Source: a virus
Taxonomy: Duplodnaviria > Caudoviricetes
Virus record (IMG/VR): IMGVR_UViG_3300025723_000097
Coordinates: 1 to 37,014 of that record
Direction: 5' to 3' (one strand)
Length of the DNA stretch: 37,014 nucleotides
Of the stretch, positions 9,498 to 35,906 are shown in pieces. The notes beneath the pieces are model-generated. The model saw only the letters and a program-made list of their open reading frames with translations. It was not told where the DNA came from and made no database searches. A program made the translations under genes and the position numbers. Positions within the stretch are counted from its first letter, which is position 1; every line of letters starts with the position of its first letter.

Positions 9498-9501
9498 ATA
9501 G

Positions 9502-9528
9502 TAGTTATTATAAATATTTTTTTAAATA
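9502..9528. promoter_or_regulatory. Divergent late-type promoter region
   Basis: TATAAATA 9509-9516 and TAAATA 9523-9528 on +; TAACTA 9507-9502 on -, 4 nt before the ATG at 9497. Confidence 0.55.
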
Positions 9529-9545
9529 CACAAAACAGGTTAACC

Positions 9546-11458: not shown

Positions 11459-12254
11459 AGGCATTAACAAGCAAGCATATTTGGATATGGCACCATATTT
11501 GGATATGGATGCGTTTGATAAGTTACAGCCCGAGATATACACAGGCTTTGCTCTAGCACGAGAGTACGCTAAGGAAGGTACTTGGATGAAGCCAGGCTTT
11601 ACTTGGAAGGATTCTAGTTACATTGTAAACTGGTTGCCTATTCCTTATGCTATAGATAAGTTCCTTGCCTTGCCTGATACAGATCCTATTAAAGTCGAAG
11701 GCTTAAAGCTATACAAAGACCTACACGACTACAAGTCACGTAACAAGTTTACACGCTATTTAAAAATGGCCATGGGCGCATACGATCCATACATTTATTA
11801 TTTCCTTTGGGAAGAAGGATCATGGGATGATCGTACTGCTCCACGTAAACTAACAGAGGAAGCAGAGTACTTTCCAGAAACTGTCAAATGGGTTGAGGAA
11901 CTTATCAACACAGGTATCTTTGAACATATCGGTCGTGTTATATTCTTCCATTGCGAAGCAGGTGGTGTTCCGTTTGAACACAAAGACTTAGATGCTAAAA
12001 ATGGTGTAGATATAGCATACCCGCACCGTAATGAGTTTATACACATTCGTCCTAATACAAAGAAAGCCATGTATGTTTGGGATCCCGAAACTAAGGACAA
12101 GACTTATATCAACACTAGAGCCGGTTGGTGGAATGACCAAGATTGGCACGGTGGTGAAATGATCATGGAACCTAGTTATAGTCTACGTGTAGATGGCAAG
12201 TTTACAGACGAGTTTAGAAAGAAGCTAGGCATTGATCACTTGGACAGCTATTAA
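11451..12254 (+). CDS. Putative cupin / Fe(II)/2OG-type oxygenase
   Basis: GRVIFF...EHKD...WHG...SLRVDG gives an HxD...H...R arrangement. Confidence 0.55.
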   Translation: MLRGINKQAYLDMAPYLDMDAFDKLQPEIYTGFALAREYAKEGTWMKPGFTWKDSSYIVNWLPIPYAIDKFLALPDTDPIKVEGLKLYKDLHDYKSRNKFTRYLKMAMGAYDPYIYYFLWEEGSWDDRTAPRKLTEEAEYFPETVKWVEELINTGIFEHIGRVIFFHCEAGGVPFEHKDLDAKNGVDIAYPHRNEFIHIRPNTKKAMYVWDPETKDKTYINTRAGWWNDQDWHGGEMIMEPSYSLRVDGKFTDEFRKKLGIDHLDSY

Positions 12255-13312: not shown

Positions 13313-13313
13313 T

Positions 13314-13883
13314 ATGATTAAGTATATTGGAAACTTTGCAGATTGGATTCAAGATGAATGGATAACATATCTATTAAACAATAGCGGTACATGTTTTCCT
13401 GTAGATGCTACTATGGAAAAAGAAGCAACTATCCTAAATGATTTTAATGGTGTAACTCCTGCCGGAGATAAAATTGAAGGAATGGAAGAACTATGGGATT
13501 TAGATCATGTATGTTGTGTTACTTACAAACAACATATCTTACCATTCAAAGTTGACCTGCCAATTGATATACAGGATAGCGAGTATGACTGGTTTTTCTT
13601 AAAGCTAACTCCAGGTAAAGTACAGCCTATACATTTAGATGCGGCCATTACTGGAAAAGAATATGCGGGAGGAGTCGCTATACCGAATACATCTGTACTA
13701 CGATACTGGATGCCTTTACAAGACTACAAACGTGGGCATATCTTTATGTACAACGATCAGAACTTTACCGATTATAAGAAAGGTGATTTATTCCTGCACG
13801 ATGGAGAAAATGTTTGGCACGGCGCAGGCAACATGGGGCACGTAACACGATTATCTTGGAACTTTGAAGTATACCCTAAATGA
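13314..13883 (+). CDS. Fe(II)/2OG oxygenase-like, tandem paralog 1
   Basis: KYIGNFADWI; PG..QPIHLD; RYW..LQDY..GHIF; WHG..N.G...R. Confidence 0.75.
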   Translation: MIKYIGNFADWIQDEWITYLLNNSGTCFPVDATMEKEATILNDFNGVTPAGDKIEGMEELWDLDHVCCVTYKQHILPFKVDLPIDIQDSEYDWFFLKLTPGKVQPIHLDAAITGKEYAGGVAIPNTSVLRYWMPLQDYKRGHIFMYNDQNFTDYKKGDLFLHDGENVWHGAGNMGHVTRLSWNFEVYPK

Positions 13884-14377
13884 AATATATTGGTAACTAT
13901 AAGGACTGGATCAAACCTGAATGGATAGAGTTCCTCTTATCTAATGATGGTACCCTACGTCCTAGAGGCGGAGAGAATCCAGACTGCGAAGAATTCAGGA
14001 TGGCTACCAGCGTCGGTTACGACATGACTAAGACTTATTGGCATCATTATACAGGAGATAAGTTTCCATTTGAAGTTACTCCGCCCTTTACTACAGACAA
14101 AGAATATATGTGGTGGTTTATAAAAATGACTCCTGGGCAGTTTATGCCTATGCACAGAGATCCGCATACCATAAATGTTAAACCAAACTGTACACGCTAC
14201 TGGATAGCTTTACAAGATTATGTTCCAGGACACATCTTTATACACGGTACGGAAGTAAGAGTTGATTATAAAGCAGGTGACATCTGGGAGTATGATGATG
14301 CTAGTGAAATACACGGTGCTTGTAATATTGGATTTAGTACTAGACTTACCGCACACTTTACCACATACGATAAATGA
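13880..14377 (+). CDS. Fe(II)/2OG oxygenase-like, tandem paralog 2
   Basis: KYIGNYKDWI; PGQFMPMHRD; GHIF; HGACNIGFSTR. Confidence 0.75.
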   Translation: MKYIGNYKDWIKPEWIEFLLSNDGTLRPRGGENPDCEEFRMATSVGYDMTKTYWHHYTGDKFPFEVTPPFTTDKEYMWWFIKMTPGQFMPMHRDPHTINVKPNCTRYWIALQDYVPGHIFIHGTEVRVDYKAGDIWEYDDASEIHGACNIGFSTRLTAHFTTYDK

Positions 14378-14895
14378 AATACATTGGCAACTATCGAGAC
14401 TGGATCACAGATGATCTAATGAATCATCTTCGTACTCGCACAGGCGAAACTAGACCAGTATGGCAACCAGAACGTTGGCAAGGACATCCTGAGCTAGATA
14501 AGTTTAGAGAATGGGTACGTCCTGGATACGCACATAAGAATCATGATTTCCAACAGTTCAATCCTAACTGCGAAGATATGAAAGACTATGAGATAGTATT
14601 ACCAGACTTTCCAGAAAAGCGTAATCAATGTCAGTGGTGGTTTATTAAATTATTACCCGGGCAGATGCAGCCTATGCATATTGATCCGCATTTAGTCGAA
14701 GTAACTAATCCTGTGCGCTATACTATGTTTTTAGAAGACTTTCAACCTGGACATATATTTGTCTACGACGACAAGATGTTTAGTAACTACAAGGCAGGGG
14801 ATGTGTATGAATGGAGTGATCCGATGATTGTACACGGTGTTGTTAATATTGGATTCAATACCCGTTATACTCTACAAGTTACCTATCACGATTAA
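14374..14895 (+). CDS. Fe(II)/2OG oxygenase-like, tandem paralog 3
   Basis: KYIGNYRDWI; PGQMQPMHID; GHIF; HGVVNIGFNTR. Confidence 0.75.
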   Translation: MKYIGNYRDWITDDLMNHLRTRTGETRPVWQPERWQGHPELDKFREWVRPGYAHKNHDFQQFNPNCEDMKDYEIVLPDFPEKRNQCQWWFIKLLPGQMQPMHIDPHLVEVTNPVRYTMFLEDFQPGHIFVYDDKMFSNYKAGDVYEWSDPMIVHGVVNIGFNTRYTLQVTYHD

Positions 14896-15967
14896 CTTGT
14901 TCTGCTATACTGATAAATGGCGACTTACTACCGCACAATATAGTACATGGTGCTGAACTGTCAGTAGTCCACTTTTGCTGTACAAGTGTTTGCCAAACTT
15001 CTCCAGACATTATATCTTTAATGCTGTGAGTGTGAGCGTCTAACGCACCTAACCCACCTAGTTCGTTAATAGTTTCAAATACTTCTAACTGAACTTCTCT
15101 AGCAATACTAGTAATAGATGTGCTGTCTATTAAATTATACTTACTATACAATTCAACATCGTAGTTTGCGTACAAGAACGACCCAATTAAACAACAAGGC
15201 ATCAAGTGGCCGTGGGCATCTATGTACAATTCTTTGCTGTCCAATGTAAGGCAATCGATTTCGCTAGTCCAGGATTTGTAGTCTTTTAAATCTACAAACT
15301 CGACAGGCTGTATGTTGCTAGAGTGAGGTTGTTCTATATAGTGTGTGATATTTCCAATTCTGTCTAACACTGGAAACTGTTTACCAAAGCGTTTACTATT
15401 TTTAACTGTAAACGAACTAAATCCCAATGAGTTTGCCAAGTTGTTAGCTATGTCCACTTCGTGCTCGTTGTGCTTGAACTTGATAAACATCCATTCCGCC
15501 CTTCCACCTGCTTCCATAAATGCAATAGCATTTCTTATGATAGCAGTAAAGTCTGTTCCTATTCTGTATAAACTATGTGTATCGGCCAATCCATCTAACG
15601 CAAATTCAACACGATGGTCGGCTGGCATAGCTTTGGCCAATTCTGTCCACCATTGTTCTGACCTAGCACTGCCGTTGGTATTGATAGTAACTCGTACCGT
15701 GCTGTAATCACGCAAGTATTGGCACATTAGAATCAAGTCGTTGTTGAGTATTGGGTCACCAAAGTCTCCGCAGAATATAACATGTTTGATCTGCGCAAGT
15801 ACTGTGGAGTTAAAGATATGTTTAAAATCAGCAATGGACCATTCGTTAAGAACTAAGGATGGGTTTTCAATTCCGCTGTGTATGTTACGCAAGCACATAG
15901 GACAACTTGCCTGACAGCGATTTGTAATCTCAACTTGTATTTGTTCTAACGATTCAAAGTTAAACAT
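14879..15967 (-). CDS. Radical SAM protein with C-terminal SPASM/twitch-like cysteines
   Basis: CQASCPMC, CGDFGDP, NTNGS, PCC, C...CG; paralog of 19968..21065. Confidence 0.9.
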   Translation of the reverse strand: MFNFESLEQIQVEITNRCQASCPMCLRNIHSGIENPSLVLNEWSIADFKHIFNSTVLAQIKHVIFCGDFGDPILNNDLILMCQYLRDYSTVRVTINTNGSARSEQWWTELAKAMPADHRVEFALDGLADTHSLYRIGTDFTAIIRNAIAFMEAGGRAEWMFIKFKHNEHEVDIANNLANSLGFSSFTVKNSKRFGKQFPVLDRIGNITHYIEQPHSSNIQPVEFVDLKDYKSWTSEIDCLTLDSKELYIDAHGHLMPCCLIGSFLYANYDVELYSKYNLIDSTSITSIAREVQLEVFETINELGGLGALDAHTHSIKDIMSGEVWQTLVQQKWTTDSSAPCTILCGSKSPFISIAEQVNRDR

Positions 15968-16489
15968 TTAATATCCAATTAAGTGTAACATATACTTTGG
16001 TTTCATGCCAGCATTAATACCGCTGTGCCATTCTTTATAATCGTTCCATTCAACAACTAGTCCTTCGGGAGAGTTGTAATAATACTTGTCACCTAGTATA
16101 AAAATGTGTCCTAACACAGGGCCACTTAACATAATACTATAACGTCTAATCTTACCATACAGTAAATAATCTTGTTCGTTGTCATCCACATCCCAGTGCC
16201 ATGGAGCAAAGTAGCCCGGGTCCACTCGGCTAATCCAAGATCTATGTATACCGTCTAAATCTAAAGCGGCGGCAATCTTATCCACTAGTTCTTGTGGGTA
16301 GTTCTTTTCAGGATAGTAGTTAGTCCATTTGATACTAGCAGGATTGAAGTTAGCATCTTGCCACATTTTGTAAATGTCCATGTACCCTGGAGTATCAAGA
16401 TTCCACTTGCTAAGGTCCGGCGTGATATCGACACCCGTGTCTAAGGATGCGATAAGTTCTGCCCAATCGATTTTATTCAAGCTGTTCAT
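15968..16489 (-). CDS. Fe(II)/2OG oxygenase-like
   Basis: PGYFAPWHWD, GHIFI, WHSGINAG; start moved to ATG 16489. Confidence 0.7.
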   Translation of the reverse strand: MNSLNKIDWAELIASLDTGVDITPDLSKWNLDTPGYMDIYKMWQDANFNPASIKWTNYYPEKNYPQELVDKIAAALDLDGIHRSWISRVDPGYFAPWHWDVDDNEQDYLLYGKIRRYSIMLSGPVLGHIFILGDKYYYNSPEGLVVEWNDYKEWHSGINAGMKPKYMLHLIGY

Positions 16490-17204
16490 CAGGATGATCC
16501 AAGTAACCAAATGCCCATAGACGTTCTGCACACCAGAAACATTTATTACAATGCGTAATAGGATGTCCAGGATTCTCGCAACTTCTAGTAATAGGGAATA
16601 GATTCTTTTCAACATCTAGTACCCTGTACATGTCTGCAATATCTTTCTTATTTAAGTTAACCCATGGCACATATAAACGCTCATCCGATTTGACTTCCTT
16701 CTGAGGTAAGCCGCCGCTGGTTAATAAACTAAAATCGGTATCTTCTCTAACAGGAATGTTAACACCAAACAATGGCTTTTGGACTTCGTCGGTCCTAGCA
16801 TCAATGTGCCACTGTGGTTGTACTTCGGGATGATCCTTCCACATCTCGTATGGAGGGAACTTAGTAAGTCCAGCATACATGATATCAACTTCACCGCTTT
16901 CTAATTTATCACTAACAGTTCTAAATAAGGTCTCAGGATTTTGATCTGCTACGTCATACTTGTGTACTGTAAAATTAGTCTTGCCTGTCAGTTGTGAGCA
17001 AAGGGCAATTGAATCATCAATAGCGGGTTCAGCGGCTTCTCTACGTCCAGGTTCAAATATTGTGTAGATATTCAAATGATCTTTAATGTGTTCCATTAAT
17101 ACATACAGCATTAAGGAACTATCGGCTCCGCCACTAACAATAATACCCACAGGTCTATCGTTATAGATTATAATGTCATGTCCGGCAATAGTGATAGTAT
17201 TCAT
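16473..17204 (-). CDS. QueC-like PP-loop ATPase (adenine nucleotide alpha-hydrolase family)
   Basis: SGGADS PP-loop; TRSCE...CNKCFWCAER Zn-type motif. Confidence 0.75.
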   Translation of the reverse strand: MNTITIAGHDIIIYNDRPVGIIVSGGADSSLMLYVLMEHIKDHLNIYTIFEPGRREAAEPAIDDSIALCSQLTGKTNFTVHKYDVADQNPETLFRTVSDKLESGEVDIMYAGLTKFPPYEMWKDHPEVQPQWHIDARTDEVQKPLFGVNIPVREDTDFSLLTSGGLPQKEVKSDERLYVPWVNLNKKDIADMYRVLDVEKNLFPITRSCENPGHPITHCNKCFWCAERLWAFGYLDHPDEQLE

Positions 17205-17893
17205 GGTGTTCCTTTGAATAGGTTGTTGTATATTTCTGGGAACGGATTATCCGTCCATGTATTTGCTAAGTGTGTAAGTAGTGTATTCTTAAAGAAGATG
17301 GAAAAATCAATCATCCCATCTTTAGTAGCGGAGTCGAATCTGCCGCCGCTATCTACTCCTATAATACCTTCTACCTTACTACGTTCTATATACGGGTTGT
17401 CTATCTCGGCACATCCGTAAAAGTCAAATGTTTTAATTTTATTATTCTTATCAATAAAGAAGCAATGCGGATACAAGGCCATTTTGTAGTAACCTTCGTC
17501 ACGCAGGTCTTTAATAATTTTATAAATCTGTTCTTTCCAATCTGGGCACAGCTCGTCTAAGTTACGTCCAGATAGTATAATATGGTTAAGTGTTTCTGTG
17601 TTCCACTCAATTACAATTTGTCTACTGTCTAAATCAACTTCAAGCACACGCGGCGCCCACTCAAAGTGTTGACACAACATCAAGTACTCGACTTCACGTT
17701 GAAAGAAAAAGTCCATTAATTCTTTAGTTAAGTTAGTTTGATATTGTTGATACTCGCTAGTTTCATCCCACAACATACACATACGGGTGCCGTCTGGACT
17801 GACCAATGGAGTATATAGCATATTAGTAGGAACGTTATGCTTGTTGATATAATCTAGTTTATATAGATAGGACCAGCCTGAAGTATCAATCAT
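17201..17893 (-). CDS. Protein-kinase-like fold protein with degenerate catalytic loop
   Basis: FFQREVEYL, APRVLEV, GYYKMALYPHCFFI, KTFDFY. Confidence 0.6.
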   Translation of the reverse strand: MIDTSGWSYLYKLDYINKHNVPTNMLYTPLVSPDGTRMCMLWDETSEYQQYQTNLTKELMDFFFQREVEYLMLCQHFEWAPRVLEVDLDSRQIVIEWNTETLNHIILSGRNLDELCPDWKEQIYKIIKDLRDEGYYKMALYPHCFFIDKNNKIKTFDFYGCAEIDNPYIERSKVEGIIGVDSGGRFDSATKDGMIDFSIFFKNTLLTHLANTWTDNPFPEIYNNLFKGTP

Positions 17894-18566
17894 ATGTTAT
17901 TACAAAGTCGTTAGTTTTAAGTTGTTCGAGTTCGTCTTTAAGTTCCGGAGACATCTTGAACTTTACCAGTGTTGGAGAACTTGAAAAGTCCTTCATTTTA
18001 AATTCAAGGTTAACACGATTGAGCCAAGGACTAAAAATATTATCAAACTTGTAATGATTCTCAGGTGCAGGTACAGCCTGGGTAATACTAACAGTAATAA
18101 AATCATAACCGAGACTATTACGCAAAGGCTCACGAACGACTAATTGTAAACGTGGAACAGATCCAAAGTTACAAGCAGTATGTAATCTATCAGTTAGCAT
18201 CATATACCAATAGTTATCTCGTTGGCATTTAAACATAGTTTCTGATTCTAAGTCAATAAGAAAAGATTGCTCGCCAGTTAAATTCAAATGCCAACGATTA
18301 TCTATGTCGGCATGTGATTGATAACTCTCTCCAGGTTTTAATGTAATAATACGTGCTTCACCTATAGGAGCAGGTAAGGTCATTAAGATACGCTCCCATG
18401 CTGTGCCTTTATACTCGTCCTTAATAGTCCAAGTGCCATAAAAGAAATCGCCCGAATGTTTATTCAATACAACAACATCATCTGTTATAGGGTGTTCAGC
18501 AAGAGCTTGCTCGATTATTCCGGCAGGACATTGCCAGCGTTGTTCGGTAACCATATCATATTTCAT
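17886..18566 (-). CDS. Fe(II)/2OG oxygenase, Asp/Asn beta-hydroxylase-like
   Basis: EARIITLKPGESYQSHAD...HTACNFG...RLQLV. Confidence 0.75.
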   Translation of the reverse strand: MKYDMVTEQRWQCPAGIIEQALAEHPITDDVVVLNKHSGDFFYGTWTIKDEYKGTAWERILMTLPAPIGEARIITLKPGESYQSHADIDNRWHLNLTGEQSFLIDLESETMFKCQRDNYWYMMLTDRLHTACNFGSVPRLQLVVREPLRNSLGYDFITVSITQAVPAPENHYKFDNIFSPWLNRVNLEFKMKDFSSSPTLVKFKMSPELKDELEQLKTNDFVITYD

Positions 18567-19975
18567 ATCAAATGTCCTAGCTCCGGAAACGTGGCTTTAA
18601 AGTCTGTACCACGCTGAGCATCTAGTGTCATTATATATTCTTTAAAATCCGGAAGCAAGTTACTTTGATCCTCTTTATCCATCCAATCAAGTATACCTTC
18701 CCAACGTTTCCATCCCCAAGGATTATTTCCTAAGGATTCGCTGTCCTTATGATTTATTTCTAACCATTCTTTAAGTTCGTTAAACTTTTCACGCACTTCT
18801 AGCTTATCTTCTTTAGGCAATACACGTATGCTCAACCATGTTGGCATCCATACTAGATGTACTCCGATTAACCCGCCACCTTGCATATATCCACTAGCAT
18901 TGATTTGCTTATTCAACTTTTTAAAATTACTAGATACCTTCCATTTGATAAAATCAGGAATATGTTTAATATTTAAAATTTGAGCAGCCAACGCTATTGT
19001 AATATGAATGTTGTCAGGTGTGTTATCTAATATATGTAAATTTTTTACAATAGTATCCCAATCGCTTGGAAAACGTATATAATGATTTCTATCAGATAGT
19101 CCGTCTAAACTAACTCCTACTTTAACTACTTTAAATTTTTTCCATAATTCAATAATAGATTCGTCTAGCATTAGGACATTTGTATTATAGCGTAAGTGTA
19201 TTTGTTCAGCATAACCTCTACGAACAATTTCTTCTAAAAATACTTTGTGTTCTTTAATGATTAGAGGTTCGCCTCCGGCAAAATATAGTTGTTTGAGATT
19301 AGGTATTTGGTCATAAATCTCATTCCAGAACTCGGGATTCTCATGCCACTTGTTATCAAATTCCTCAGATTGCCAACTCATTTGTTTTTTAATCAAAGTA
19401 CTTTTAAATATAGGAAATATTTTTTTATGTTCAGAAACCCACAAACTAGAATCGTGCGGACTGCACATGACGCATTTTAGATTACAAGTATGCCCCAATC
19501 TTAAATCTAAATATTGTAACTTAAATGGAATGCTTCCGTCATCGTGTGTGTCATCGATCAATTTAGGAATATCAACATTATCTAAATGCCATGCGCCGGT
19601 TTCCCAGATTCTTTTACTTACAATACCTTCGGCTTCTTCTTCAAAACATTTAGTACAGCTATTAGGTATTTTTCCTTCTAGCATTAGTCTGCGTACAGAA
19701 CGCATATACTCGCTATTAAATACTTGGCTGGGCAACTCATTTCCAAAGTTACTAGCATTACCATTTTCTTTTTTAACAAGTCCTACTTCATACTCACCCG
19801 TCTCGGCTCCGCTGGCATTAGCAACACAGCAAATACGAGCATCACCATTGGGCCTGGTGGCCAAGTGTAGCCAAGGAATAACACAAAATGATGTCGAGCC
19901 AGCTACTTGTTCTAGCTGTTGTTGCCAGTTGGCCAACTCACTATTTTCATGGTTCATCCAAAAAACTTTATTCAT
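18563..19975 (-). CDS. Radical SAM protein with N-terminal twitch/SPASM-like domain
   Basis: CVIPW...ICC...CTKC then CNLKCVMC, FAGGEP; paralog of 22430..23692. Confidence 0.9.
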   Translation of the reverse strand: MNKVFWMNHENSELANWQQQLEQVAGSTSFCVIPWLHLATRPNGDARICCVANASGAETGEYEVGLVKKENGNASNFGNELPSQVFNSEYMRSVRRLMLEGKIPNSCTKCFEEEAEGIVSKRIWETGAWHLDNVDIPKLIDDTHDDGSIPFKLQYLDLRLGHTCNLKCVMCSPHDSSLWVSEHKKIFPIFKSTLIKKQMSWQSEEFDNKWHENPEFWNEIYDQIPNLKQLYFAGGEPLIIKEHKVFLEEIVRRGYAEQIHLRYNTNVLMLDESIIELWKKFKVVKVGVSLDGLSDRNHYIRFPSDWDTIVKNLHILDNTPDNIHITIALAAQILNIKHIPDFIKWKVSSNFKKLNKQINASGYMQGGGLIGVHLVWMPTWLSIRVLPKEDKLEVREKFNELKEWLEINHKDSESLGNNPWGWKRWEGILDWMDKEDQSNLLPDFKEYIMTLDAQRGTDFKATFPELGHLI

Positions 19976-21065
19976 TATTTGTTATCCTAATATTATCTAT
20001 AACTTCTACCATCTGATCCCGAGGTTTAGAAAAATCAGGAGTACTACCACACATCCTTGTACAAGTGATTAATTTTTTTTCATTCCAAAATATATTCCAG
20101 ACTGATTGATACTTAGACGAGTTTACAATATTTTTTATAGGGTGTGTTATAGCATTCAATTCTTCTATACCCCCAAATGCTTCTATTAAATCGTCGTATT
20201 GTTTTGTTATTTCATATCTAACAGCATACGCATCATTTTGTTCAATATAGGTATACGGAATACTTGCTAACCAGCAACAAGGGAATACATTACGAAAAGC
20301 ATCTATGTAAATTTCTTTTTGATGAAATGCCTGACAATCGATAACCGATTCCGCCACTACAGTCTTATAAGCATCTATTACTTTTTTGTCTATAAACTTT
20401 AAAGGTGTATCTGTAGCAGGTTCAATGATATGGGTTATATTACCTTTCTTATCTAACACATCTACTTTTGGTTCAAGTAGGAACCTACTACTGTTTTTCA
20501 TAACAAACCTATCAAAGCCTAATTCTTCTGCTAGACGTTTAGCATCTTCTACTTGATGTTCGTTATGTTTAAATTTAATAAAGCACCATTCGGCTCGACC
20601 GCCTGCTTTAATAAATGCTGTAGCATTCTTAATAACTTTGTCATAGTCTGTGCCTATGCGATATAAACTATGTGTGTCCTCTAATCCGTCGAGAGCAAAT
20701 ACTACTAGATGATTTACAGGTAATACGCTCACAAGTTCTGCCCACCATTGCGTAGATTTAGCACTACCATTAGTGTGTATTCTTATGTTCAAATTTGGAT
20801 TAGTATCAGTAGCATATCTACACATCTCTACTAGATCCTTATTTAAGATAGGATCCCCAAAATTGCCGCAAAAGAAAAACCCATCTAGTTGTGCCAATAC
20901 ACTAGGACTCATAATAGTTTTGAATTCTTCTAGTGTCCAATCTGTTAATTTTATTAACAGATTGTCTAACCCACCTTGAATATTTCGAGCGCACATAGGA
21001 CAACTTGCTTGGCAGTTGTTAGTGATTTCCAAATGGACTTCTTTTAGTTGTGAGAAGGTGAACAT
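19968..21065 (-). CDS. Radical SAM protein with C-terminal SPASM/twitch-like cysteines
   Basis: CQASCPMC, CGNFGDP, HTNGS, PCC, CTRMCG. Confidence 0.9.
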   Translation of the reverse strand: MFTFSQLKEVHLEITNNCQASCPMCARNIQGGLDNLLIKLTDWTLEEFKTIMSPSVLAQLDGFFFCGNFGDPILNKDLVEMCRYATDTNPNLNIRIHTNGSAKSTQWWAELVSVLPVNHLVVFALDGLEDTHSLYRIGTDYDKVIKNATAFIKAGGRAEWCFIKFKHNEHQVEDAKRLAEELGFDRFVMKNSSRFLLEPKVDVLDKKGNITHIIEPATDTPLKFIDKKVIDAYKTVVAESVIDCQAFHQKEIYIDAFRNVFPCCWLASIPYTYIEQNDAYAVRYEITKQYDDLIEAFGGIEELNAITHPIKNIVNSSKYQSVWNIFWNEKKLITCTRMCGSTPDFSKPRDQMVEVIDNIRITNNE

Positions 21066-21107
21066 GAAATATTTATGTACGCACTTAATAAGGTTAAATA
21101 TTTCATG
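21063..21107. promoter_or_regulatory. Back-to-back late-type promoters forming a perfect 13-bp inverted repeat
   Basis: CATGAAATATTTA (21063-21075) / TAAATATTTCATG (21095-21107); each arm reads TAAATA-TTTC-ATG. Confidence 0.75.
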
Positions 21108-21812
21108 AAAATACCATTCGATCCAAATTGGAAAAATATTGCCATCAGTTTAAGTGGTGGAGCCGATAGTGCGTTGTTAACCTATTTGATTTGTAAACAA
21201 GTCAAAGACCTAGATATCATAGTACACGTTATTAGTCATATACGTATGTGGAAAACCAAGCCATGGCAACAGGACGATGCTGATAGAGTATACACATGGT
21301 TATCTCAAAAATTCAATCATATCAACTTTAAACGACATATAAATTTTATTGCCCCTGAGATTGAATATGGTAATATAGGTCCATACTTAACAGATGAGTA
21401 TGGTAAGAAGGTCAGCGGTGATAACATACAACAACGTGCCTATGCCGAGTTTATCGGCCACAAACATAATATTGATGCTTACTATAATGCGGTAACACGC
21501 AATCCTAGACTGGCAACGTTCAACGGTATGCGCGAACGAGACGTTGAGCCCGATGACAGTAACCAGCATCTTACTGAAATGACACACATGGGTCGTAAAG
21601 TTTATCATCCATTTAGATTTATAGAAAAATCAGAAATAGTTAGAACATATAAAGAACTTGGCATAATGGAATTGTTCAATATCACACGCAGTTGCGAAGG
21701 TGAGTTTGACGGAATTGATTATACTACATACATCAAGAACCAGCCAGTACCAACTTGCGGAGAGTGCTTTTGGTGTAAAGAAAGAGAGTGGGCAATTGAA
21801 CAAAACCAATAG
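21105..21812 (+). CDS. QueC-like PP-loop ATPase
   Basis: SLSGGADS; TRSCE...CGECFWCKER; start moved to ATG 21105. Confidence 0.75.
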   Translation: MKIPFDPNWKNIAISLSGGADSALLTYLICKQVKDLDIIVHVISHIRMWKTKPWQQDDADRVYTWLSQKFNHINFKRHINFIAPEIEYGNIGPYLTDEYGKKVSGDNIQQRAYAEFIGHKHNIDAYYNAVTRNPRLATFNGMRERDVEPDDSNQHLTEMTHMGRKVYHPFRFIEKSEIVRTYKELGIMELFNITRSCEGEFDGIDYTTYIKNQPVPTCGECFWCKEREWAIEQNQ

Positions 21813-22443
21813 ACTTATAACATTCGGATGTTCATTTACGTTTGGCACAGGATTGCCCGATTGCAAAGAAGGTAGTGCTACTCCTAGTAATCAAGGCTGG
21901 CCAGCAATACTGAGCAAAAAATTAAACTTAGATTTAGTTAATGTATCTGCTAGCGGAGCGAGCAATTTTGAAATCTTACATAACATTATAAATTTCGATT
22001 TTCAAAGTTCTGATACCGTTATTATCATGTGGACATATTTTGCAAGAGATTTATATTTTAGAAGTCTATTTTCAAAAATTTGGCCGATAGATAGATTAAG
22101 CCCTGGGAGTACTAGCAACAGCATTATTGATAATTTGTTAGATACTAAAGTTATTGTCGGACGTAAGTGGATAGAAAATATGAATGAAAAGACATTTGCC
22201 TTAAAGACATGGGCACACATACACCACGCAGATTTATACTTAACAAGTAAAGGTATAAAATACATACACTTTCCAGCATTACCAGACGATTTATTAAAAT
22301 ATTCTGTACCATACAAAATTAATAATTTCTATGCTAATGGTATAGTAAGATTAGATGTAGCAACAGATAACATGCATCCCGGTATTAAAACAAACGAACA
22401 TACAGCAAATTCAATATATAATATTTTAAATGAACAAATCTAA
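21796..22443 (+). CDS. SGNH/GDSL hydrolase-like protein
   Basis: TFGCSFTFG, GASN, C-terminal DNMHPG; probable TTG start (uncertain). Confidence 0.65.
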   Translation: MNKTNRLITFGCSFTFGTGLPDCKEGSATPSNQGWPAILSKKLNLDLVNVSASGASNFEILHNIINFDFQSSDTVIIMWTYFARDLYFRSLFSKIWPIDRLSPGSTSNSIIDNLLDTKVIVGRKWIENMNEKTFALKTWAHIHHADLYLTSKGIKYIHFPALPDDLLKYSVPYKINNFYANGIVRLDVATDNMHPGIKTNEHTANSIYNILNEQI

Positions 22444-23692
22444 AACATTCTGTATGCATCCTTTCACAGGATTAGCCACACGTGAAGACGGTGCTATTAA
22501 GGCCTGTTGTCGTAGCCATCCGGTTGGCTTTATAGATAAGAATAGTCTAGAAGAAATTTGGAACAACGATACTATGCGCCGCATACGTCAGCAGGTGCTT
22601 AATAATGAGCGTCCGCCTGAATGTGAACCATGCTTTAACTTAGAAGACCAAGGTGTTGAAAGTTTGCGAGTGCGTCATATAAGCGGTAAGATTCCAGAAG
22701 CTCGTATTAACTTATATCCTAATGCTCTAGATACTCTAGCAGAAGATTATACAATGCCTTTTGAAATTCCTACTATAGAACTAAAACTAAACAATTTGTG
22801 TAATCTCAAATGTCGTATGTGCCATCCAGGTGATAGTACTAGTTGGAACGATTGGGAGCAAGTGGAAGATTTCTACAAAGCAGAAAACAACATTATTGCT
22901 ATTTTAGTAGACGAACATAATTTAAAGAACAAACCACATCTTGACAAGTTTCAAGATAGTCCAGAGTGGTGGGCCAGTTTAGAAAAGTTGTTGCCCTACT
23001 TTCGCCGTGTAGAGTTTGCTGGTGGAGAACCATTAATGGATCCACAACACTACAGAATTTTAGATATGTTAAAACCGTATGGTTCAAATATAGAATTAAA
23101 ATATGCTACCAATGGCACTACATTAGGAATCAAAGGCGGGAGAACAGTTCATGAATATTGGCCTCATTTTAGAAGCATTGCCGTTAACGTCAGCCTTGAC
23201 GGCATTGGCTCTGTTTACAATTACATTCGTGGTAACAGTGATTGGGAAGAAGTTGTTGCTAACATTAAAGAAATACAAAAGATCAAAAATGTAAGTCGTG
23301 TAGTAGGAGCGTGTACTGTACAAATTAGTAACGTGCTTACCTTAGATAAAACTATAGAATGTTTTCTTAATGAGCTAGGCATAGTATTCCATTCGCATCG
23401 TGTAGAATATCCTAAGCAATTATCAGCACAAGTATTACCCAGAGAACTACAAGTTCTAGCTATAACAAAATTACGTGCTGTCATGGATCACGTAGAAGAT
23501 TTTAAATTAGTCAAACAACATCCAGCACTGTTAGCGTATACACGTGGGCAGATACAAGACAATATCAATTACTTGATGGCACGTGACCAAAGTGACAAGT
23601 GGGTAGACTGTATAGAGTTTAATCGTAGATTAGATGTAACTCGTGAACAAAGTTTTACAGATGTGACTCCAGAGTTTAAACTGTATGTATAA
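22430..23692 (+). CDS. Radical SAM protein with N-terminal twitch/SPASM-like domain
   Basis: CMHPF...ACC...CEPC then CNLKCRMC, FAGGEP, ATNG. Confidence 0.9.
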   Translation: MNKSKTFCMHPFTGLATREDGAIKACCRSHPVGFIDKNSLEEIWNNDTMRRIRQQVLNNERPPECEPCFNLEDQGVESLRVRHISGKIPEARINLYPNALDTLAEDYTMPFEIPTIELKLNNLCNLKCRMCHPGDSTSWNDWEQVEDFYKAENNIIAILVDEHNLKNKPHLDKFQDSPEWWASLEKLLPYFRRVEFAGGEPLMDPQHYRILDMLKPYGSNIELKYATNGTTLGIKGGRTVHEYWPHFRSIAVNVSLDGIGSVYNYIRGNSDWEEVVANIKEIQKIKNVSRVVGACTVQISNVLTLDKTIECFLNELGIVFHSHRVEYPKQLSAQVLPRELQVLAITKLRAVMDHVEDFKLVKQHPALLAYTRGQIQDNINYLMARDQSDKWVDCIEFNRRLDVTREQSFTDVTPEFKLYV

Positions 23693-24611
23693 GGTTGTTA
23701 ATCGTTGGGATCATGCCAATGCTGTCAAAGTCGAATGGAACTTAGGTAAGCGTTGTAACTATGACTGTAGTTATTGCCCTAGCGAAATACACGATAACAC
23801 TAGTCCGCATACCGATATAGAAATATTAAAACAAACTATTGATCAACTTTCCTCACTAGGCAGACCTGTACGTTTAAGTTTCACGGGAGGTGAGCCTTGT
23901 GTACATCCTAAGTTTGATGAACTAATAAAGTATGCTAGATATAAAAATATACATTGGATTAGCGTAACAACAAATGGAACACGCCCATATGAGTTTTATG
24001 CTAGCCTACCTGTTGACCAATATGTAGTTAGTATACACTATGAATATGACTGGCTTAGAGTTGTTAACACTATACAGAGACTAGCCGAAACTAAAGTTAA
24101 GATTATAGCACAGATTATGGCCCATCATGATTATATGGATCAAGCATTACAAACTCGTGCGATAATGCTTCAGGCACAAATACCCAGTACAGTAAGACGT
24201 ATTCGTTGGACTAAAGGCGATCACGATTTGTTTGATGATATGCGTTACAACCCAACAGACTTAGCATGGGTCAAAGATGCTGAAGCAACTGTACAACCTA
24301 ATACTATCATATTTTATCGAGATAAACCTTTAGAACAAAGACACGCTAATGATATTATTAAATTAAAATTAAATCAATACAAAGGTTGGACCTGTAGCGC
24401 AGGTATAGAAAGCCTGATGATAAATTGGGACGGAGATGTACACAGAGCGACTTGTAGAGTCGGTGGTAGTCTTGGCAACATATATGAAGGCAACTTCGTT
24501 GTCCCTAGCGAACCCGTAACTTGTGACCGTAATTTCTGTACCTGCGCGGCAGACATACCGCTAACTAAATTACTTGCGGCCGATAACCATATAACGAGTG
24601 TACAAGGGTAA
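23685..24611 (+). CDS. Radical SAM protein with C-terminal Cys cluster
   Basis: CNYDCSYC, FTGGEP, TTNG, CSAG...C...CTCAAD; paralog of 25773..26729. Confidence 0.9.
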   Translation: MYKVVNRWDHANAVKVEWNLGKRCNYDCSYCPSEIHDNTSPHTDIEILKQTIDQLSSLGRPVRLSFTGGEPCVHPKFDELIKYARYKNIHWISVTTNGTRPYEFYASLPVDQYVVSIHYEYDWLRVVNTIQRLAETKVKIIAQIMAHHDYMDQALQTRAIMLQAQIPSTVRRIRWTKGDHDLFDDMRYNPTDLAWVKDAEATVQPNTIIFYRDKPLEQRHANDIIKLKLNQYKGWTCSAGIESLMINWDGDVHRATCRVGGSLGNIYEGNFVVPSEPVTCDRNFCTCAADIPLTKLLAADNHITSVQG

Positions 24612-25163
24612 TTTTAATTCGCTGGCCCAGATTACATTGATGCCACACTGATGTTTAAATTCCTCTAAGTCGCTAGCTATCCTAACGTGTTCTGGAATGT
24701 CATAGTTGTTACTTTGTAACACTAATAAACTATTCTGAGGCATACCACTTAACCACAAGTCATATTGATCCTGTGTAATATGTTCGCAACTTGTATTAAT
24801 AACAACGTCGGCATCACTTCTAATATTACACATGTCTGCTGTTACCGCATGAAATCTGCCTTGTATTTCTTCGCCCTTGTTCATCATAGTAGCAACAGAC
24901 TCACAAGTTGGATCAATATCTATACTACGAATATTTTTAATTTTAATGTTACTTTGAAACAACATACTGGCTAACACACCGACCCAGCCGCCGTGTATGT
25001 CTATAGATACATCGTCAACCCAAAACATTTTTTCTAACTCGGTAATTAGCCACTCTTTGCTTTTGAGTTGCCCACTCCAAAAGGCGTCCATGGTACGCAT
25101 AGGATCCTTGCTATTTCGGATGGCACACATCCAGTAGTGTAAGTGTTCAGTATCTATTTTCAT
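24570..25163 (-). CDS. Class I SAM-dependent methyltransferase-like protein
   Basis: IHGGWVG motif I, SIDID, ADM, VINTSCEH. Confidence 0.7.
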   Translation of the reverse strand: MKIDTEHLHYWMCAIRNSKDPMRTMDAFWSGQLKSKEWLITELEKMFWVDDVSIDIHGGWVGVLASMLFQSNIKIKNIRSIDIDPTCESVATMMNKGEEIQGRFHAVTADMCNIRSDADVVINTSCEHITQDQYDLWLSGMPQNSLLVLQSNNYDIPEHVRIASDLEEFKHQCGINVIWASELKLPLYTRYMVIGRK

Positions 25164-25776
25164 TTAAAATTGCCGTTATTTCGTCTGCTATTAATTTGTG
25201 TGTGTTAACACCTGGGTGTAAATTATCTAACGCTCGATCAACTGGAAGTGTTGATTGAATTTTTAATTTGTGATAATCTAAATCTAAAAATTTAGGCTTA
25301 TAAGACTTTACTTCGCTATAATCAGCAAACACATTATAAACTGGAATATTAATCGATTGTAAGTATAGCGTAGCGTGGTGAATATAAAACCATGTTCTAG
25401 TTGCAATGTCGGCAGCTGAGTGAGTTTCCTTCCAACTATTTGCTAACTCAGTAGTTTGCCAGGTACCGATAGGTATAATTGTTTGTTGTCCTAATAAATT
25501 CTTTTTACCAAATATTAAATCTCTTCCAACAAGCGACCACATTACTATAGCAACATCCCCTTTAGAAAATTTATATTTTAAAATATTATATAATATTTCT
25601 AAATTACTAGCGCCACACTTGCCTTGATTAGATAACTGAACATTAGCCTGATTAGCTACTAACGATGGCCATGCTAACTTACTAGGAGATTTGCCTGGCA
25701 TATCAGGAGCTATATGGCAGTCTGGTAAACCGTGCCCGTATGTTACTGAACATCCGAATGTTACTATTTTTTTCAT
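25147..25776 (-). CDS. SGNH/GDSL hydrolase-like protein
   Basis: TFGCSVTYG.GLPDC, GASN, DNLHPG; paralog of 21796..22443. Confidence 0.7.
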   Translation of the reverse strand: MKKIVTFGCSVTYGHGLPDCHIAPDMPGKSPSKLAWPSLVANQANVQLSNQGKCGASNLEILYNILKYKFSKGDVAIVMWSLVGRDLIFGKKNLLGQQTIIPIGTWQTTELANSWKETHSAADIATRTWFYIHHATLYLQSINIPVYNVFADYSEVKSYKPKFLDLDYHKLKIQSTLPVDRALDNLHPGVNTHKLIADEITAILNENRY

Positions 25777-26729
25777 TTTACTTTTGGTACCTTACTATCC
25801 GCTGAACTAACACACCTTTCAGTTACGCAAAGCCGAGGGGCGGAAAACAAAGTAAATTTTTCTATCGTACCCAGAGAATCTTCTTTACAGCTATAAGCCC
25901 GCTTGACCTCATTACCTCTTATTATAACACTTTGATACCCACTATTACAAGTCCAATTGGTAAAACTGTTAAAGCCTAGCGCATTGAATCTTTCTGCTTG
26001 GTCAATATAATAATCTTGTTCGCCGTCTGTTAGACGTATTTGATAGCCTTCTTGCTGTTCAAAATCATTCTGCATAATATCAATCATCTCAGATGTGTAA
26101 CCATCCACTATGGCTGTGGCTGTGTCGTTGCTTTGAGGTTTGAGTGTTACGTTGATTCCACGAGCACGTAAGCGTTCACAGCGTTCTAACGTGGCATAGA
26201 ACTTGTCGGGCACCATAACTTGATTAACTGTTACATGAACACGTTCATACATCAACTGTAAACACTTGTCGCCGAACTCTTGTTCCCTAGCAAACTCTTC
26301 ATGAAAGCTGGCTGTTATACTTCTACGCTGTAAACAGTCAGTAATATTACACCAATTGTTCCACCATTTTGAACCAGGCGACAAATTGGTAGTCATATGT
26401 ATACTTTGGTAAGGACTTTCAGTTTCGTCTAGGTGCTTGATTAAATTGAGAAGATCTTTATAAGCGGTTGGCTCACCTCCGCTGAAGCTCCAGTGAAATT
26501 GAGTAAATCCGTTCAAACGAGCTTGACGTTTTATCTCATCGACTGTAGACTTATATACTTCTAAAGTTTGGTGATCCGGTTGATCACTACGAGCATAGGG
26601 CCAACAGTAAGAACATTTATAGTTACAAAACCTGCCCAATATCCAACTAATGTTAAATAATGGACGATCCAACATAGTTTGCTGTCCAAACCGTTGTATT
26701 TTTTCGAATGGTATAAGAGAGAAATTCAT
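25773..26729 (-). CDS. Radical SAM protein with C-terminal Cys cluster
   Basis: CNYKCSYC, FSGGEP, TTN, CNSG...C...C...CVSSAD. Confidence 0.9.
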   Translation of the reverse strand: MNFSLIPFEKIQRFGQQTMLDRPLFNISWILGRFCNYKCSYCWPYARSDQPDHQTLEVYKSTVDEIKRQARLNGFTQFHWSFSGGEPTAYKDLLNLIKHLDETESPYQSIHMTTNLSPGSKWWNNWCNITDCLQRRSITASFHEEFAREQEFGDKCLQLMYERVHVTVNQVMVPDKFYATLERCERLRARGINVTLKPQSNDTATAIVDGYTSEMIDIMQNDFEQQEGYQIRLTDGEQDYYIDQAERFNALGFNSFTNWTCNSGYQSVIIRGNEVKRAYSCKEDSLGTIEKFTLFSAPRLCVTERCVSSADSKVPKVK

Positions 26730-26757
26730 TGACAGTATTTACAAAATGCGTTATAAT
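26729..26757 (+). promoter_or_regulatory. Consensus sigma70 promoter for the tRNA-like RNA, with an antisense TAAATA box in its spacer
   Basis: TTGACA 26729-26734, 17 nt, TATAAT 26752-26757; TATTTA at 26736-26741. Confidence 0.9.
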
Positions 26758-26763
26758 AGTTAC

Positions 26764-26880
26764 GTGGACGTGAGTGTAACTGGTAAACCTCCTCCAAGTA
26801 AGCTGACCCCCAGCTGAACGGAGGGATTGGGCCTTGCTCTTAGAGCGGCTTTGGAAGTTCGAATCTTCCCGTCCACACCA
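26764..26880 (+). tRNA. Atypical tRNA-like RNA (117 nt), anticodon undetermined; possibly tRNA-Tyr(GTA) with a 17-nt insertion
   Basis: Acceptor GTGGACG/CGTCCAC + ACCA; D-loop TGGTA; stem CCTCC/GGAGG; long variable arm; T-arm GGAAG-TTCGAAT-CTTCC. Confidence 0.8.
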
Positions 26881-26908
26881 TTTTTAACACAGGCACAGAA
26901 AGGCAAGT

Positions 26909-27238
26909 ATGAACAAGGCAATAGCAATAGCACTTATGTTAGTAACCACTAACGTATTTGCTTATGAAGATAACCCATATACTAAGTTTGATACCACACA
27001 TAATTTTACTAACCAAAGTAACATTACTTGGCGGGCAGTTGATAATGTTCAAGCAGAGTGTAACAAGGCTTCAACCAAGTACGCAGGTAAGAACTTTGGC
27101 TATGCTGTTTTAGCTTGTAGTTTTTGGATTAAAGAAAATGGGCAAGATGCTTGTGTAATTATTACAGGTAAACAAACAAGTATGCACAGTATTGGGCACG
27201 AAATGCGCCACTGCTTTCAAGGTAATTGGCATGACTAG
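26909..27238 (+). CDS. Secreted protein with HEXXH motif
   Basis: Signal peptide (VFA/Y); GHEMRHC near the C-terminus; 4 Cys. Confidence 0.65.
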   Translation: MNKAIAIALMLVTTNVFAYEDNPYTKFDTTHNFTNQSNITWRAVDNVQAECNKASTKYAGKNFGYAVLACSFWIKENGQDACVIITGKQTSMHSIGHEMRHCFQGNWHD

Positions 27239-27629
27239 AAATTTGGAAGAAGAAATTTGGCGTGATGACGAAATCTTAAACAAGATACGTACTCGCGATG
27301 ACTATGCTCAGAATGTATATGCGGCATTTTGTAATATGCGTTGGTGCCCTAGAGAACTAGTACCAGCATTACGACAAGATGACAAAAAAGACTTGTGGCA
27401 TTGTAGTTGGCGAAGTGCTGGCGGCTTAGTTGCTGATTGGCAAGGTAAGGGCGGAGACTACATGGACTGGTACTGTTCCGGTATTAGAGGCGGTTTGAGT
27501 ATTGACGGCAAAGAAGATGCCGAGTATTTTGAACGTACTAAGTATGTGTCCGAAGGTGTTATCACTGAAGAAGTTGAAAAGGACTTTAACCGCTTGGGCT
27601 GGTTTCCTGTTCCTTGGGAAGATGATTAA
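27231..27629 (+). CDS. Phage hypothetical protein
   Basis: YAQNVYAAFCN, CSWRSAGG, YMDWYCSG; start moved to ATG 27231. Confidence 0.75.
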   Translation: MTRNLEEEIWRDDEILNKIRTRDDYAQNVYAAFCNMRWCPRELVPALRQDDKKDLWHCSWRSAGGLVADWQGKGGDYMDWYCSGIRGGLSIDGKEDAEYFERTKYVSEGVITEEVEKDFNRLGWFPVPWEDD

Positions 27630-27649: not shown

Positions 27650-27820
27650 ATGACACATTGGACAGTAACAGTTGAAGAAGCGGATGACGGCAGTGGAGAT
27701 GTAGTACTGCCACTTCCGCAAGAATTACTAGACCTACAGGGTTGGAAAGAAGGAGATACACTTGAGTGGACAGATAATGGAGATGGCTCTTGGAGCATAA
27801 CAAAAGTAAGCAATGGCTAA
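27650..27820 (+). CDS. AbrB/MazE/SpoVT-like small DNA-binding protein (56 aa, not in track)
   Basis: Hand translation ...GDVVLPLPQELLDLQGWKEGDTLEW...; TAAATA at 27639-27644. Confidence 0.7.
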   Translation: MTHWTVTVEEADDGSGDVVLPLPQELLDLQGWKEGDTLEWTDNGDGSWSITKVSNG

Positions 27821-28031
27821 AGACGATATTATAGAATTAACAGGCACAGTTGAAGAAGTACTACCAGGTAACATGTTCAGGGTAAAGGTAGAAAATATGC
27901 CAAACCCACTATTATGTTACATGGGTGGCAAATTAAAACAAAACAAGATTCGCATTATCCTAGGCGATAATGTAAGGCTAGAAGTCAGTCCATATGACCT
28001 CAGCAAGGGTAGAGTAACTTATAGGTTATAA
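27813..28031 (+). CDS. infA: Translation initiation factor IF-1
   Basis: MAKDDIIE..G.V.E.LP...FRV...GK....IRI..GD.V..E.SPYDLSKGRVTYR, 72 aa. Confidence 0.95.
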   Translation: MAKDDIIELTGTVEEVLPGNMFRVKVENMPNPLLCYMGGKLKQNKIRIILGDNVRLEVSPYDLSKGRVTYRL

Positions 28032-35315: not shown

Positions 35316-35906
35316 ATGCCAAATTTAGTACCAATGGTGATTGAACAAGAAGCTCGCGGTGAACGTAGTTATGACATTTATAGTCGACTACTTAAAGATC
35401 GTATCGTTATGTTAGATACAGATGTAAATGAACATTCAGCAAGTTTAATCGTAGCACAGCTACTTTTCTTAGAAAGTCAAGGTAATGAGGATATTAGTTT
35501 TTTCATTAATAGCCCTGGCGGTGTTGTTACCGCTGGTATGGCAATTTACGATACCATGCAGTTCATCAAACCGGACGTACAAACCATCGTTATGGGACAG
35601 GCTTGCTCAATGGGTAGTTTACTCGCCACTGCTGGCGCTCCTGGCAAACGCAAGATTCTACCAAACGCTCGCCACATGATTCACCAGCCTAGTGGCGGTG
35701 CTGGCGGGCAAGCTACAGACATGGAAATCCAAGTAAAAGAAATCCTAAAAATGAAGCAGAGTTTGACACAGATTTATGTCAATCATAATTCAAAGGGCAA
35801 GACTTTTGAAGAGTTTTATAATGCTATGGAACGTGATAACTTTATGAGTGCCCAAGAAGCACTGGATTTTGGCTTGGTTGACGAAATTGTTACAAAACGC
35901 CCATAA
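35316..35906 (+). CDS. clpP: ATP-dependent Clp protease proteolytic subunit
   Basis: [40 protein letters not shown]. Confidence 0.95.

Follow-up and report, generated by a model that had tools for sequence, protein, structure and literature searches.

A family of phage RNAs with a tRNA-like body and a replaced anticodon arm

Phage T5 encodes RNA1 (rna1 or T5s03, NC_005859.1:30501-30644), which is annotated as a "tRNA-like stable RNA with unknown functions." Similar RNAs are present in the cultured phages BF (KY630187.1:289744-289855), CBB, Kaldavass, XbC2, Kuerle, Fifi287, and 2.275.O (MG592671.1:210989-211123). These look-alikes are known from database records alone, and some are annotated as tRNAs ("tRNA-Val" in CBB, "tRNA-Arg" in Kaldavass, and "tRNA-Cys" in Fifi287). 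Here, we describe a family of phage RNAs that is real, conserved, and uncatalogued, and that belongs to this known but unexplained class. Our starting point was a virus record of 37,014 nucleotides (the window). The RNA folds as a cloverleaf with covarying stems, selection acts on its core, its anticodon arm is free to vary and never canonical, and there is one copy per genome, apart from the tRNA array. We found no description of the family in the literature within our scope (older work on the RNAs of T4 and T5 and most subscription papers fell outside it). In the accessible part of a review of jumbo phage functions, tRNA-like RNA appears only as a partner of Ro (PMC7824862). Three short motifs and two contig names from the family had no match in six of the nine supplementary files of a catalogue of structured viral RNAs (PMC10690425); the other three files may list the family as a candidate RNA.

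T5 RNA1 shares with our family a Leu-type D loop, an enlarged non-decoding arm, a long variable arm, and A51-U63 in the T stem. However, it is 144 nt long, lacks an encoded CCA, and lies within a tRNA array, while the members of our family stand alone behind their own promoter. Its match to R1, our model of the family, is partial and scores 18.4 bits, below the ordinary tRNAs of T5, and it belongs to another sequence family. The cultured look-alikes share the Leu-type D loop, the non-decoding arm, the long variable arm, and A73. Those of BF, CBB, Kaldavass, and XbC2 also share a bulged variable arm, A51-U63, and a UA-GC-tetraloop-GC-GA core, which 26 of the 164 family members listed contain as well. 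On the other hand, the look-alikes have no encoded CCA, and the copies in BF, CBB, XbC2, Kuerle, and Fifi287 adjoin tRNA genes. The look-alikes score 24-41 bits with R1, which is no higher than ordinary tRNAs, so any homology to our family is conjectural. Unannotated or misannotated look-alikes of 112-115 nt from cultured jumbo and N4-like phages lie at L644:12845-12956 (BF), at L655:61-173 (CBB), and in L656, L657, L660, L662, L663, and L664; a symmetric 7x7 internal loop in the anticodon arms of look-alikes is presumably loop-E-like. In Vibrio phage 2.275.O, there are two unannotated tRNA-like RNAs of 135 nt with very long variable regions (L654:990-1124 and 1224-1359). They sit just upstream of a YqeY-like gene, and in T5, too, a gene labeled "tRNA amidotransferase" adjoins the tRNA region. 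BF also encodes three tRNA-shaped RNAs with an extra arm and a common CAGCAAC-type motif (277106-277227, 294918-295036, and 296567-296691; L644 and L645).

Allo-tRNAs are also non-canonical, have long variable arms, and occur in bacteria and phages (PMC5389517, PMC7609411). But they keep their anticodons and have an 8/4 or 9/3 configuration of the acceptor and T stems (PMC5389517), while all members of our family have a 7/5 split, and on this basis we rejected an allo-tRNA identity. The non-proteinogenic tRNA-Gly of S. aureus has a stem that binds EF-Tu weakly (U50-A64/A51-U63), of which our family shares A51-U63; unlike our family, it keeps its anticodon arm and has a known acceptor enzyme (PMC7826273). 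We also rejected, by Rfam search, the identities of bacterial Y RNA (PMC4201824) and tmRNA. The family has no match to the YrlA model, and it reaches just 15-16 bits with the tmRNA model, whose cut-off is 47.

The locus contains the following features:

25773..26729, minus strand: radical SAM gene (PF04055), divergent, the usual upstream neighbor of the RNA
26729..26757, plus strand: sigma70-type promoter, TTGACA, 17 nt, TATAAT (12 of 12 consensus bases)
26764..26880, plus strand: whole RNA gene, a 117-nt class II tRNA-like RNA without an anticodon, very probably a mimic (from its fold, and from 108.4 bits with R1, which was built including this sequence)
26764..26770, plus strand: 5' strand of the acceptor stem, 7 bp with 26870-26876; G4-C69 and G7-C66 are invariant
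26771..26790, plus strand: U8 and D arm with a Leu-type loop (A14 A15 ... G18 G19 U20 A20a)
26791..26824, plus strand: replaced anticodon arm, with a 5-bp basal stem, an AGUA/GAA internal loop, a 5-bp hairpin, and a C-rich apex
26791-26795/26820-26824, plus strand: 5-bp basal stem of the replaced arm
26796-26819, plus strand: 24-nt "loop" with a hairpin (26801-26805/26811-26815) and apex ACCCC
26825..26852, plus strand: 28-nt variable region, with a 4-nt linker, a long variable arm, and U48
26853..26869, plus strand: T arm with invariant A51-U63
26877..26880, plus strand: discriminator A73 and encoded CCA (ACCA), followed by a U-rich trailer
26909..27238, plus strand: ORF of 109 amino acids with a hydrophobic N-terminus and an HEMRH motif, 28 nt downstream of the RNA

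A preliminary description had placed a tRNA-like RNA at 26764-26880 on the plus strand, and all of its coordinates are correct. The minimum free energy fold is the cloverleaf, at -42.5 kcal/mol (z = -2.3, with 7 of 200 shuffles equally good), and the combination of a 7-bp acceptor stem, a T arm, and CCA arose in none of 200 simulated windows of equal dinucleotide make-up. The D stem contains A10-U25, G11-C24, conserved U.C and G.A mismatches, and one extra pair that covaries (G.U in 83 members of the family, G.G in 41, U-A in 35, and C-G in 1). The variable arm has 5 bp, a 2-nt bulge, 4 bp, and a 3-nt loop. Rather than an open anticodon loop, the 24 nt probably form an internal loop, with AGUA (26797-26800) opposite GAA (26816-26818), that is capped by the hairpin.

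Standard tools do not recognize this RNA. ARAGORN called no tRNA in the window, and Rfam had no match at the RNA's position with E <= 1, so no existing Rfam family accounts for it at that threshold. The relatives score 16-28 bits against the tRNA model RF00005, with one at 30.8 (the gathering score is 29 bits). When ARAGORN was run on the relatives with introns allowed and a lowered threshold, it reported inconsistent anticodons. That both tools miss the RNA is what a decaying tRNA pseudogene would predict, but we give that explanation practically no credence because of how the family has evolved.

The family comprises at least 164 distinct sequences of 95-121 nt, 58 of them at less than 90% similarity. 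Members were gathered from viral DNA by pattern scans with the 5' half and a separate scan with the 3' half. The 164 members listed are a sample, and the 5' patterns and regular expressions fix part of the D arm. In an alignment of 58 rows, 94.2% of cells are paired, and both partners have changed in 20 of the 29 pairs; none of 500 shuffles reached as high, and slid controls gave 35-52% pairing. Within the acceptor stem, double changes affect 5 of the 7 pairs and 99.3% of cells are paired, with G4-C69 in all 164 members listed. In the variable arm, 4 of 4 pairs of the distal helix and 3 of 5 pairs of the proximal helix change on both sides. The covariation that the preliminary description wished to see among phage homologs is therefore present.

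The sequence is conserved as well. A comparison of 772 pairs of syntenic loci gives an identity of 0.91 for the 56-nt core (slightly high, as the pattern used to excise it fixes some bases of the D arm) and of 0.47 for the fourfold-degenerate sites of the neighboring gene. The spacer of the promoter is 0.39 identical in the same pairs. The RNA ends in ACCA in 162 of the 164 members listed and in ACCG in the other two. We conclude that the RNA is maintained by purifying selection on its core. The compensatory changes, the conserved core, and the kept promoter and CCA bear out the earlier argument against simple decay, and we rejected the pseudogene on these grounds.

The anticodon arm is where the family departs from tRNA. 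It ranges from 12 to 37 nt, and none of the 164 members listed has an arm of 17 or 19 nt or, as the preliminary description suggested relatives might, a normal 7-nt loop. Arms that are shorter than normal (12 or 16 nt) occur in 28 of those members. The AGUA/GAA motif occurs in 66 of the 164, with a C-rich apex like the window's in 37 and mostly a tetraloop apex in 29. Other classes are GNRA-capped (25 members), short CUUG hairpins (9), and short UNNG-type hairpins and others. On a 40-row tree of the neighboring gene, the arm class changes 16 times (the minimum possible is 6, and the shuffled mean is 20.7), and recombination may add to these changes. Given these changes and the free length of the arm, nothing seems to be required at the tip except closure. 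Seven members have Leu(UAA)- or Tyr(GUA)-like loop words at the tips of long arms, which may be remnants or chance. The family RNA is almost certainly unable to read codons.

The preliminary description had proposed two options: a tRNA-Tyr with a short intron that is processed by phage enzymes, or a non-decoding mimic. It is true that, as that description noted, the loop would shrink to 7 nt with a central GUA if 26802-26818 were excised, which is what a tRNA-Tyr(GUA) with a 17-nt intron would need. But position 33 would then be A instead of U (the non-canonical A33 that was noticed earlier is indeed found throughout the motif class). Furthermore, because 98 of the 164 members listed lack AGUA/GAA, there is no shared anticodon or intron, and arms below the canonical length leave no common mature loop. 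Neither a tRNA splicing endonuclease nor RtcB was found in any of five carrier records, three of which are at least 90% complete. Also, an ordinary tRNA-Tyr(GUA) is present elsewhere in five carriers (G001, G002, G003, G004, and G006), although none was found in the portion of G007 that we examined. These results led us to reject the intron model, which we now consider highly improbable, and they favor the second option: the RNA is very probably a non-decoding mimic. One form of that option, a decoy for anticodon nucleases, is weakened, since the anticodon arm is the sole part of the RNA that is not conserved.

The commonest arm does resemble another RNA. We take the AGUA/GAA internal loop to be the bulged-G or sarcin-ricin motif, with the three-dimensional fold that this name implies. 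By eye, the window's arm matches the flanks of helix 95 of E. coli 23S rRNA at 15 of 17 bases, with A.C instead of U.C. Among the 66 members with the motif, 64 match at 15 or 16 of the 17 bases and 57 match at 16; this flank sequence is common to 13 of the 15 proteobacterial genomes with a match. In four members, the AGUA/GAA arm is even capped by a GCAA tetraloop. So the tRNA body might be a stable carrier and the arm the working part, which would imitate the sarcin-ricin loop of 23S rRNA without its cleavable tetraloop and bind toxins or factors that attack the ribosome. The loop-E-like internal loop in the cultured look-alikes, which is symmetric and in the same place, would fit this idea. 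Nevertheless, we think it a long shot. About 60% of the family lacks the motif, and bulged-G-type loops are common as rigid extenders of helices. Arms that lack the motif can have the CUCC/GGAG stem as well, which means that the match to helix 95 is in part just inherited stem, and two members carry the motif on an altered stem. Finally, the comparison was made after the sequence had been seen. We view the likeness as a lead only.

Which tRNA does the body resemble? In E. coli, LeuRS recognizes A73, A15-U48, G18G19, A20a, and the tertiary pairs that join the D loop to the T loop, and the anticodon arm is dispensable for charging; TyrRS recognizes A73, G1-C72, and U35 (PMC9976931). Our family keeps the LeuRS set: A73, A15:U48, and GG-N-A are each found in 164 of the 164 members listed (A73 and U48 are unbiased, while the D-loop bases were partly fixed by the search patterns). 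U48 is present in all 129 members that were found without using that position, and U8:A14 and the tertiary bases of the T loop are also kept. As references, we used bacterial tRNAs, among which A15:U48 occurs in 30 of 30 Leu and 0 of 24 Tyr. With R1, 32 bacterial Leu genes score 31-52 bits, led by a tRNA-Leu(GAG) at 51.8 bits, and 20 Tyr genes score 25-36 bits, no better than Gly. Both comparisons favor Leu somewhat because the Leu references were chosen with a D-loop pattern. The G73 and G2-C71 of tRNA-Ser are each absent from all 164 members listed. In all, the family shares with class II tRNA-Leu (RF00005) the 7/5 acceptor-T helix, A73, A15:U48, G18G19, A20a, the long variable arm, and CCA. 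It differs in lacking a 7-nt anticodon loop, in its extra D-stem pair, in its linker and bulged variable arm, in its weaker T stem, and in being, as predicted, leaderless. On the basis of these determinants, we think it fairly likely that the RNA is handled as a tRNA-Leu.

Parts of the body do look like tRNA-Tyr, which is what the preliminary description had suggested from G1-C72, A73, and the long variable arm. The T arm (A51-U63 and A59) and the base of the variable arm, with two U before the T stem, are indeed Tyr-like, and by T-arm score 108 of 129 members side with Tyr. Compared to phage references (10 phage Tyr), 127 of 129 members have a Tyr-like acceptor; A73, G1-C72, and A3-U70 are shared with bacterial tRNA-Tyr(GUA), the latter two in most members. 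A73 and G1-C72 are both present in the window, and they are found in 164 and 148 of the 164 members listed. But the D loop, 15:48, and 2-71 are Leu-like: G2-C71, a Tyr/Ser pair, is in none of the 164, and G15-C48 never occurs. A mimic of tRNA-Tyr could bind TyrRS or else a defence nuclease that is specific for Tyr, for example PtuAB of retron-Eco7, which depletes tRNA-Tyr (PMC11555353). Partial BLAST matches of the 3' half are mostly to phage tRNA-Tyr, and in the main arm class, numbering the basal stem 27-31 puts GUA at the expected start of an anticodon. However, the 98 members without the motif have no such GUA, G1-C72 is replaced in 16 of the 164 members listed, and R1 does not rank Tyr above Gly. 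Also, bacterial TyrRS needs U35 (PMC9976931), and the family does not present a GUA anticodon in a loop. We consider a Tyr mimic improbable.

There are reasons for caution about Leu, too. The extra pair in the D stem and the linker of 3-5 nt before the variable arm imply that the geometry for LeuRS may not be kept. G3.U70, the determinant for alanine, occurs in 12 of the 164 members listed, so the identity of the amino acid may not matter. A51-U63 is present in 129 of 129 members, and the flanking pairs of the T stem vary by compensation, which seemed to mark the RNA for exclusion from EF-Tu. But this mark is weakened, as 22 of 110 phage tRNAs have A51-U63 too, and so do 11 of the 30 bacterial tRNA-Leu. 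The predicted affinity for EF-Tu is -9.43 kcal/mol, as compared to -10.1 for bacterial tRNA-Leu (about 0.7 weaker) and equal to that of tRNA-Tyr (computed with values from PMC3239215).

The promoter is conserved. Its -35 box shares bases with the start codon of the radical SAM gene, which is divergent, and 6 nt separate the end of its -10 box from nucleotide 1 of the RNA. Of the 163 members with enough upstream DNA, 149 have a promoter that matches at least 10 of 12 consensus bases, and the spacing is exactly 6 nt in 145 of these, in which nucleotide 1 is always a purine. In contrast, the spacing is 8-12 nt for the ordinary phage tRNAs (8 of 165 calls) that a promoter immediately precedes. Given the usual distance from a sigma70 promoter to its start, we infer that transcription starts at nucleotide 1 and that RNase P would not be needed. 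Since the 5' end is paired, the product is probably a stable RNA with a 5'-triphosphate. Nothing resembling a terminator lies in 26400-27400, so the 3' end must be generated by cleavage of a longer transcript, which probably includes the 109-amino-acid ORF.

These features might instead indicate that the RNA acts in cis, as a tRNA-shaped 5' cap that stabilizes an early transcript or directs cleavage by RNase E or RNase Z before the downstream gene. The predicted start, the missing terminator, the U-rich trailer, and the ORF just 28 nt downstream all agree with this, and the freedom of the arm fits enzymes that read only the elbow and acceptor. On the other hand, there is no upstream RNA to remove, and a signal for cutting needs no invariant A73, encoded CCA, Leu-type D loop, or bulged variable arm. 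The downstream ORFs of 154 members fall into six clusters (113, 26, 12, 1, 1, and 1 members), so there is no fixed partner, which favors action in trans. We think that a role in cis is quite unlikely. In 26 members (L260, L299, and other GNRA-capped ones), the downstream gene encodes, by eye, a short histone-like protein that is rich in Ala, Lys, and Arg.

To locate relatives, we also used the radical SAM neighbor. Of 80 viral loci with a homolog of this gene, 63 have the full RNA directly upstream and 2 have it at another place; 4 are truncated by the contig end, and 11 show no RNA. Of these 11, three have at most 62 bases upstream, and one is in a genome (G004) with a copy of the RNA 13 kb away. 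In the window, 9288-26729 holds a large cluster of radical SAM, QueC/PP-loop-like, and TauD genes, a make-up that is typical of modification islands and may be unrelated to the RNA. When we searched five large phage records with R1, each had one copy (73-116 bits, with the next best match at 39.5). The gene stands apart from the tRNA array, whose roughly 30 ordinary tRNAs include Tyr(GUA) and several Leu.

The carriers are uncultured giant phages of the T4-like kind, with records that reach up to 400 kb. Their capsid proteins are 67-73% identical to those of cultured jumbo phages of Proteobacteria, and their DnaK is 70-71% identical to betaproteobacterial records from a plasmid collection, so the host is probably proteobacterial. 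We did not find the family in 141 proteobacterial genomes, where the best R1 matches were ordinary tRNA-Leu (27 candidates were scored per genome). We rejected 67 pattern matches in GTDB as members, as most were within the coding sequence of EF-G. Among 50,697 phage records, blastn with the window and L026 gave only partial matches to tRNAs; five cultured jumbo relatives contain nothing above 44 bits with R1, and the radical SAM neighbor has no match among cultured phage records.

How might an RNA that ribosomes cannot use be useful to a phage? We propose, tentatively, that it is a conserved and leaderless non-decoding mimic of tRNA-Leu that is charged by LeuRS and, being abundant, acts as a decoy that occupies host enzymes with affinity for the acceptor end or elbow of tRNA. 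Transcription from nucleotide 1 would give a leaderless RNA with a paired 5'-triphosphate end, and host enzymes that trim 3' ends would free it from the downstream mRNA. The host's leucyl-tRNA synthetase would then recognize and leucylate it, because all of the published E. coli LeuRS determinants are present and the anticodon arm is unneeded. Binding to EF-Tu would be somewhat weak, by the 0.7 kcal/mol noted above. The sealed arm would prevent miscoding and shield the RNA from anticodon nucleases. The result would be a stable, abundant shell that the host's tRNA-binding enzymes accept but ribosomes cannot use, and it could soak up defence toxins that modify CCA ends or aminoacyl-tRNAs, which would spare the real tRNAs. 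The candidate partners include toxins of the AbiEii/MenT, toxSAS, and GNAT types. That the partner is a toxin that modifies the acceptor end or aminoacyl-tRNA is a guess, and the decoy role itself is possible but still in doubt: our analysis did not link any defence enzyme to the RNA, and in the one case tested, with retron-Eco7, rescue by a phage tRNA required an intact anticodon (PMC11555353). A more elaborate version seems improbable to us. Here, the leaderless and CCA-ended tRNA-Leu shell would display exchangeable motifs where a tRNA has its anticodon arm. The commonest motif would be an uncleavable copy of the sarcin-ricin loop, and the motifs would be swapped repeatedly in an arms race with host defences that attack translation.

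Alternatively, the RNA might be a dedicated donor of leucine outside the ribosome, either for L/F-transferase (that is, N-degron tagging for ClpS-ClpAP) or for another tRNA-dependent transferase. The intact LeuRS set and the lack of an anticodon agree with such a donor, and the invariant and weak A51-U63 recalls the non-proteinogenic tRNA-Gly of S. aureus (PMC7826273). Also, ClpS is encoded by four of the five carriers, and one of them (G001) adds ClpP and a ClpA/B-type ATPase. Nevertheless, we consider this unlikely. L/F-transferase is absent from all five carrier records, and the rules for the E. coli enzyme, which are G3:C70 and the set of C72, A4:U69, and C68 (PMC4105747), are poorly followed: G3:C70 is in 53 and A4:U69 in none of the 164 members listed. 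(The window has G3:C70 but G4-C69 in place of A4:U69.) ClpS is not specific to carriers, as four of five cultured relatives without the family also have it. And as discussed above, A51-U63 is not rare in bacterial tRNA-Leu and would cost little binding to EF-Tu. In G001, a Pfam scan of 288 of the 291 ORFs of at least 110 amino acids (ORFs that span the 20-kb cuts were missed) found no synthetase, RNA ligase, or CCA enzyme. G001 also encodes DnaK, DnaJ, GroES, and HSP20, and the window itself encodes an AbrB/MazE-like protein, IF-1, and ClpP (27650-28031 and 35316-35906).

RNAs of the T5 RNA1 type are annotated without a mechanism, and our family, whose comparative signal is uncommonly clean, supplies the comparative evidence that was missing. 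The LeuRS set, the elbow, the CCA, A51-U63, and the predicted start at nucleotide 1 are held, while the whole anticodon arm is free. This map makes the function directly testable, by charging, by binding to EF-Tu, or by protection from toxins. If the decoy reading is true, then this is an RNA-based form of counter-defence that is distinct from the supply of spare tRNAs. A practical issue is that tRNA finders miss such RNAs or assign them false anticodons (the three annotations above, and "Pro" in G002), which distorts studies of codon usage in phages.

Other oddities were seen among phage RNA genes. Phage genes for tRNA-Ile(UAU) with long variable regions, which are unusual for Ile, are at L409:13786-13877, L414:12598-12689, and L417:15129-15227. 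Genes for tRNA-like RNAs of 101-104 nt with odd anticodon regions lie in tRNA arrays, in L651 (G007:194218-194321) and L575 (LPKP23 252949-253049). Finally, two carriers have circularly permuted (two-piece) tmRNA genes, at L410:3032-3475 (G001) and L414:7470-7886 (G002), and the one in G001 lies, by eye, directly behind a gene for a cold-shock-like protein.
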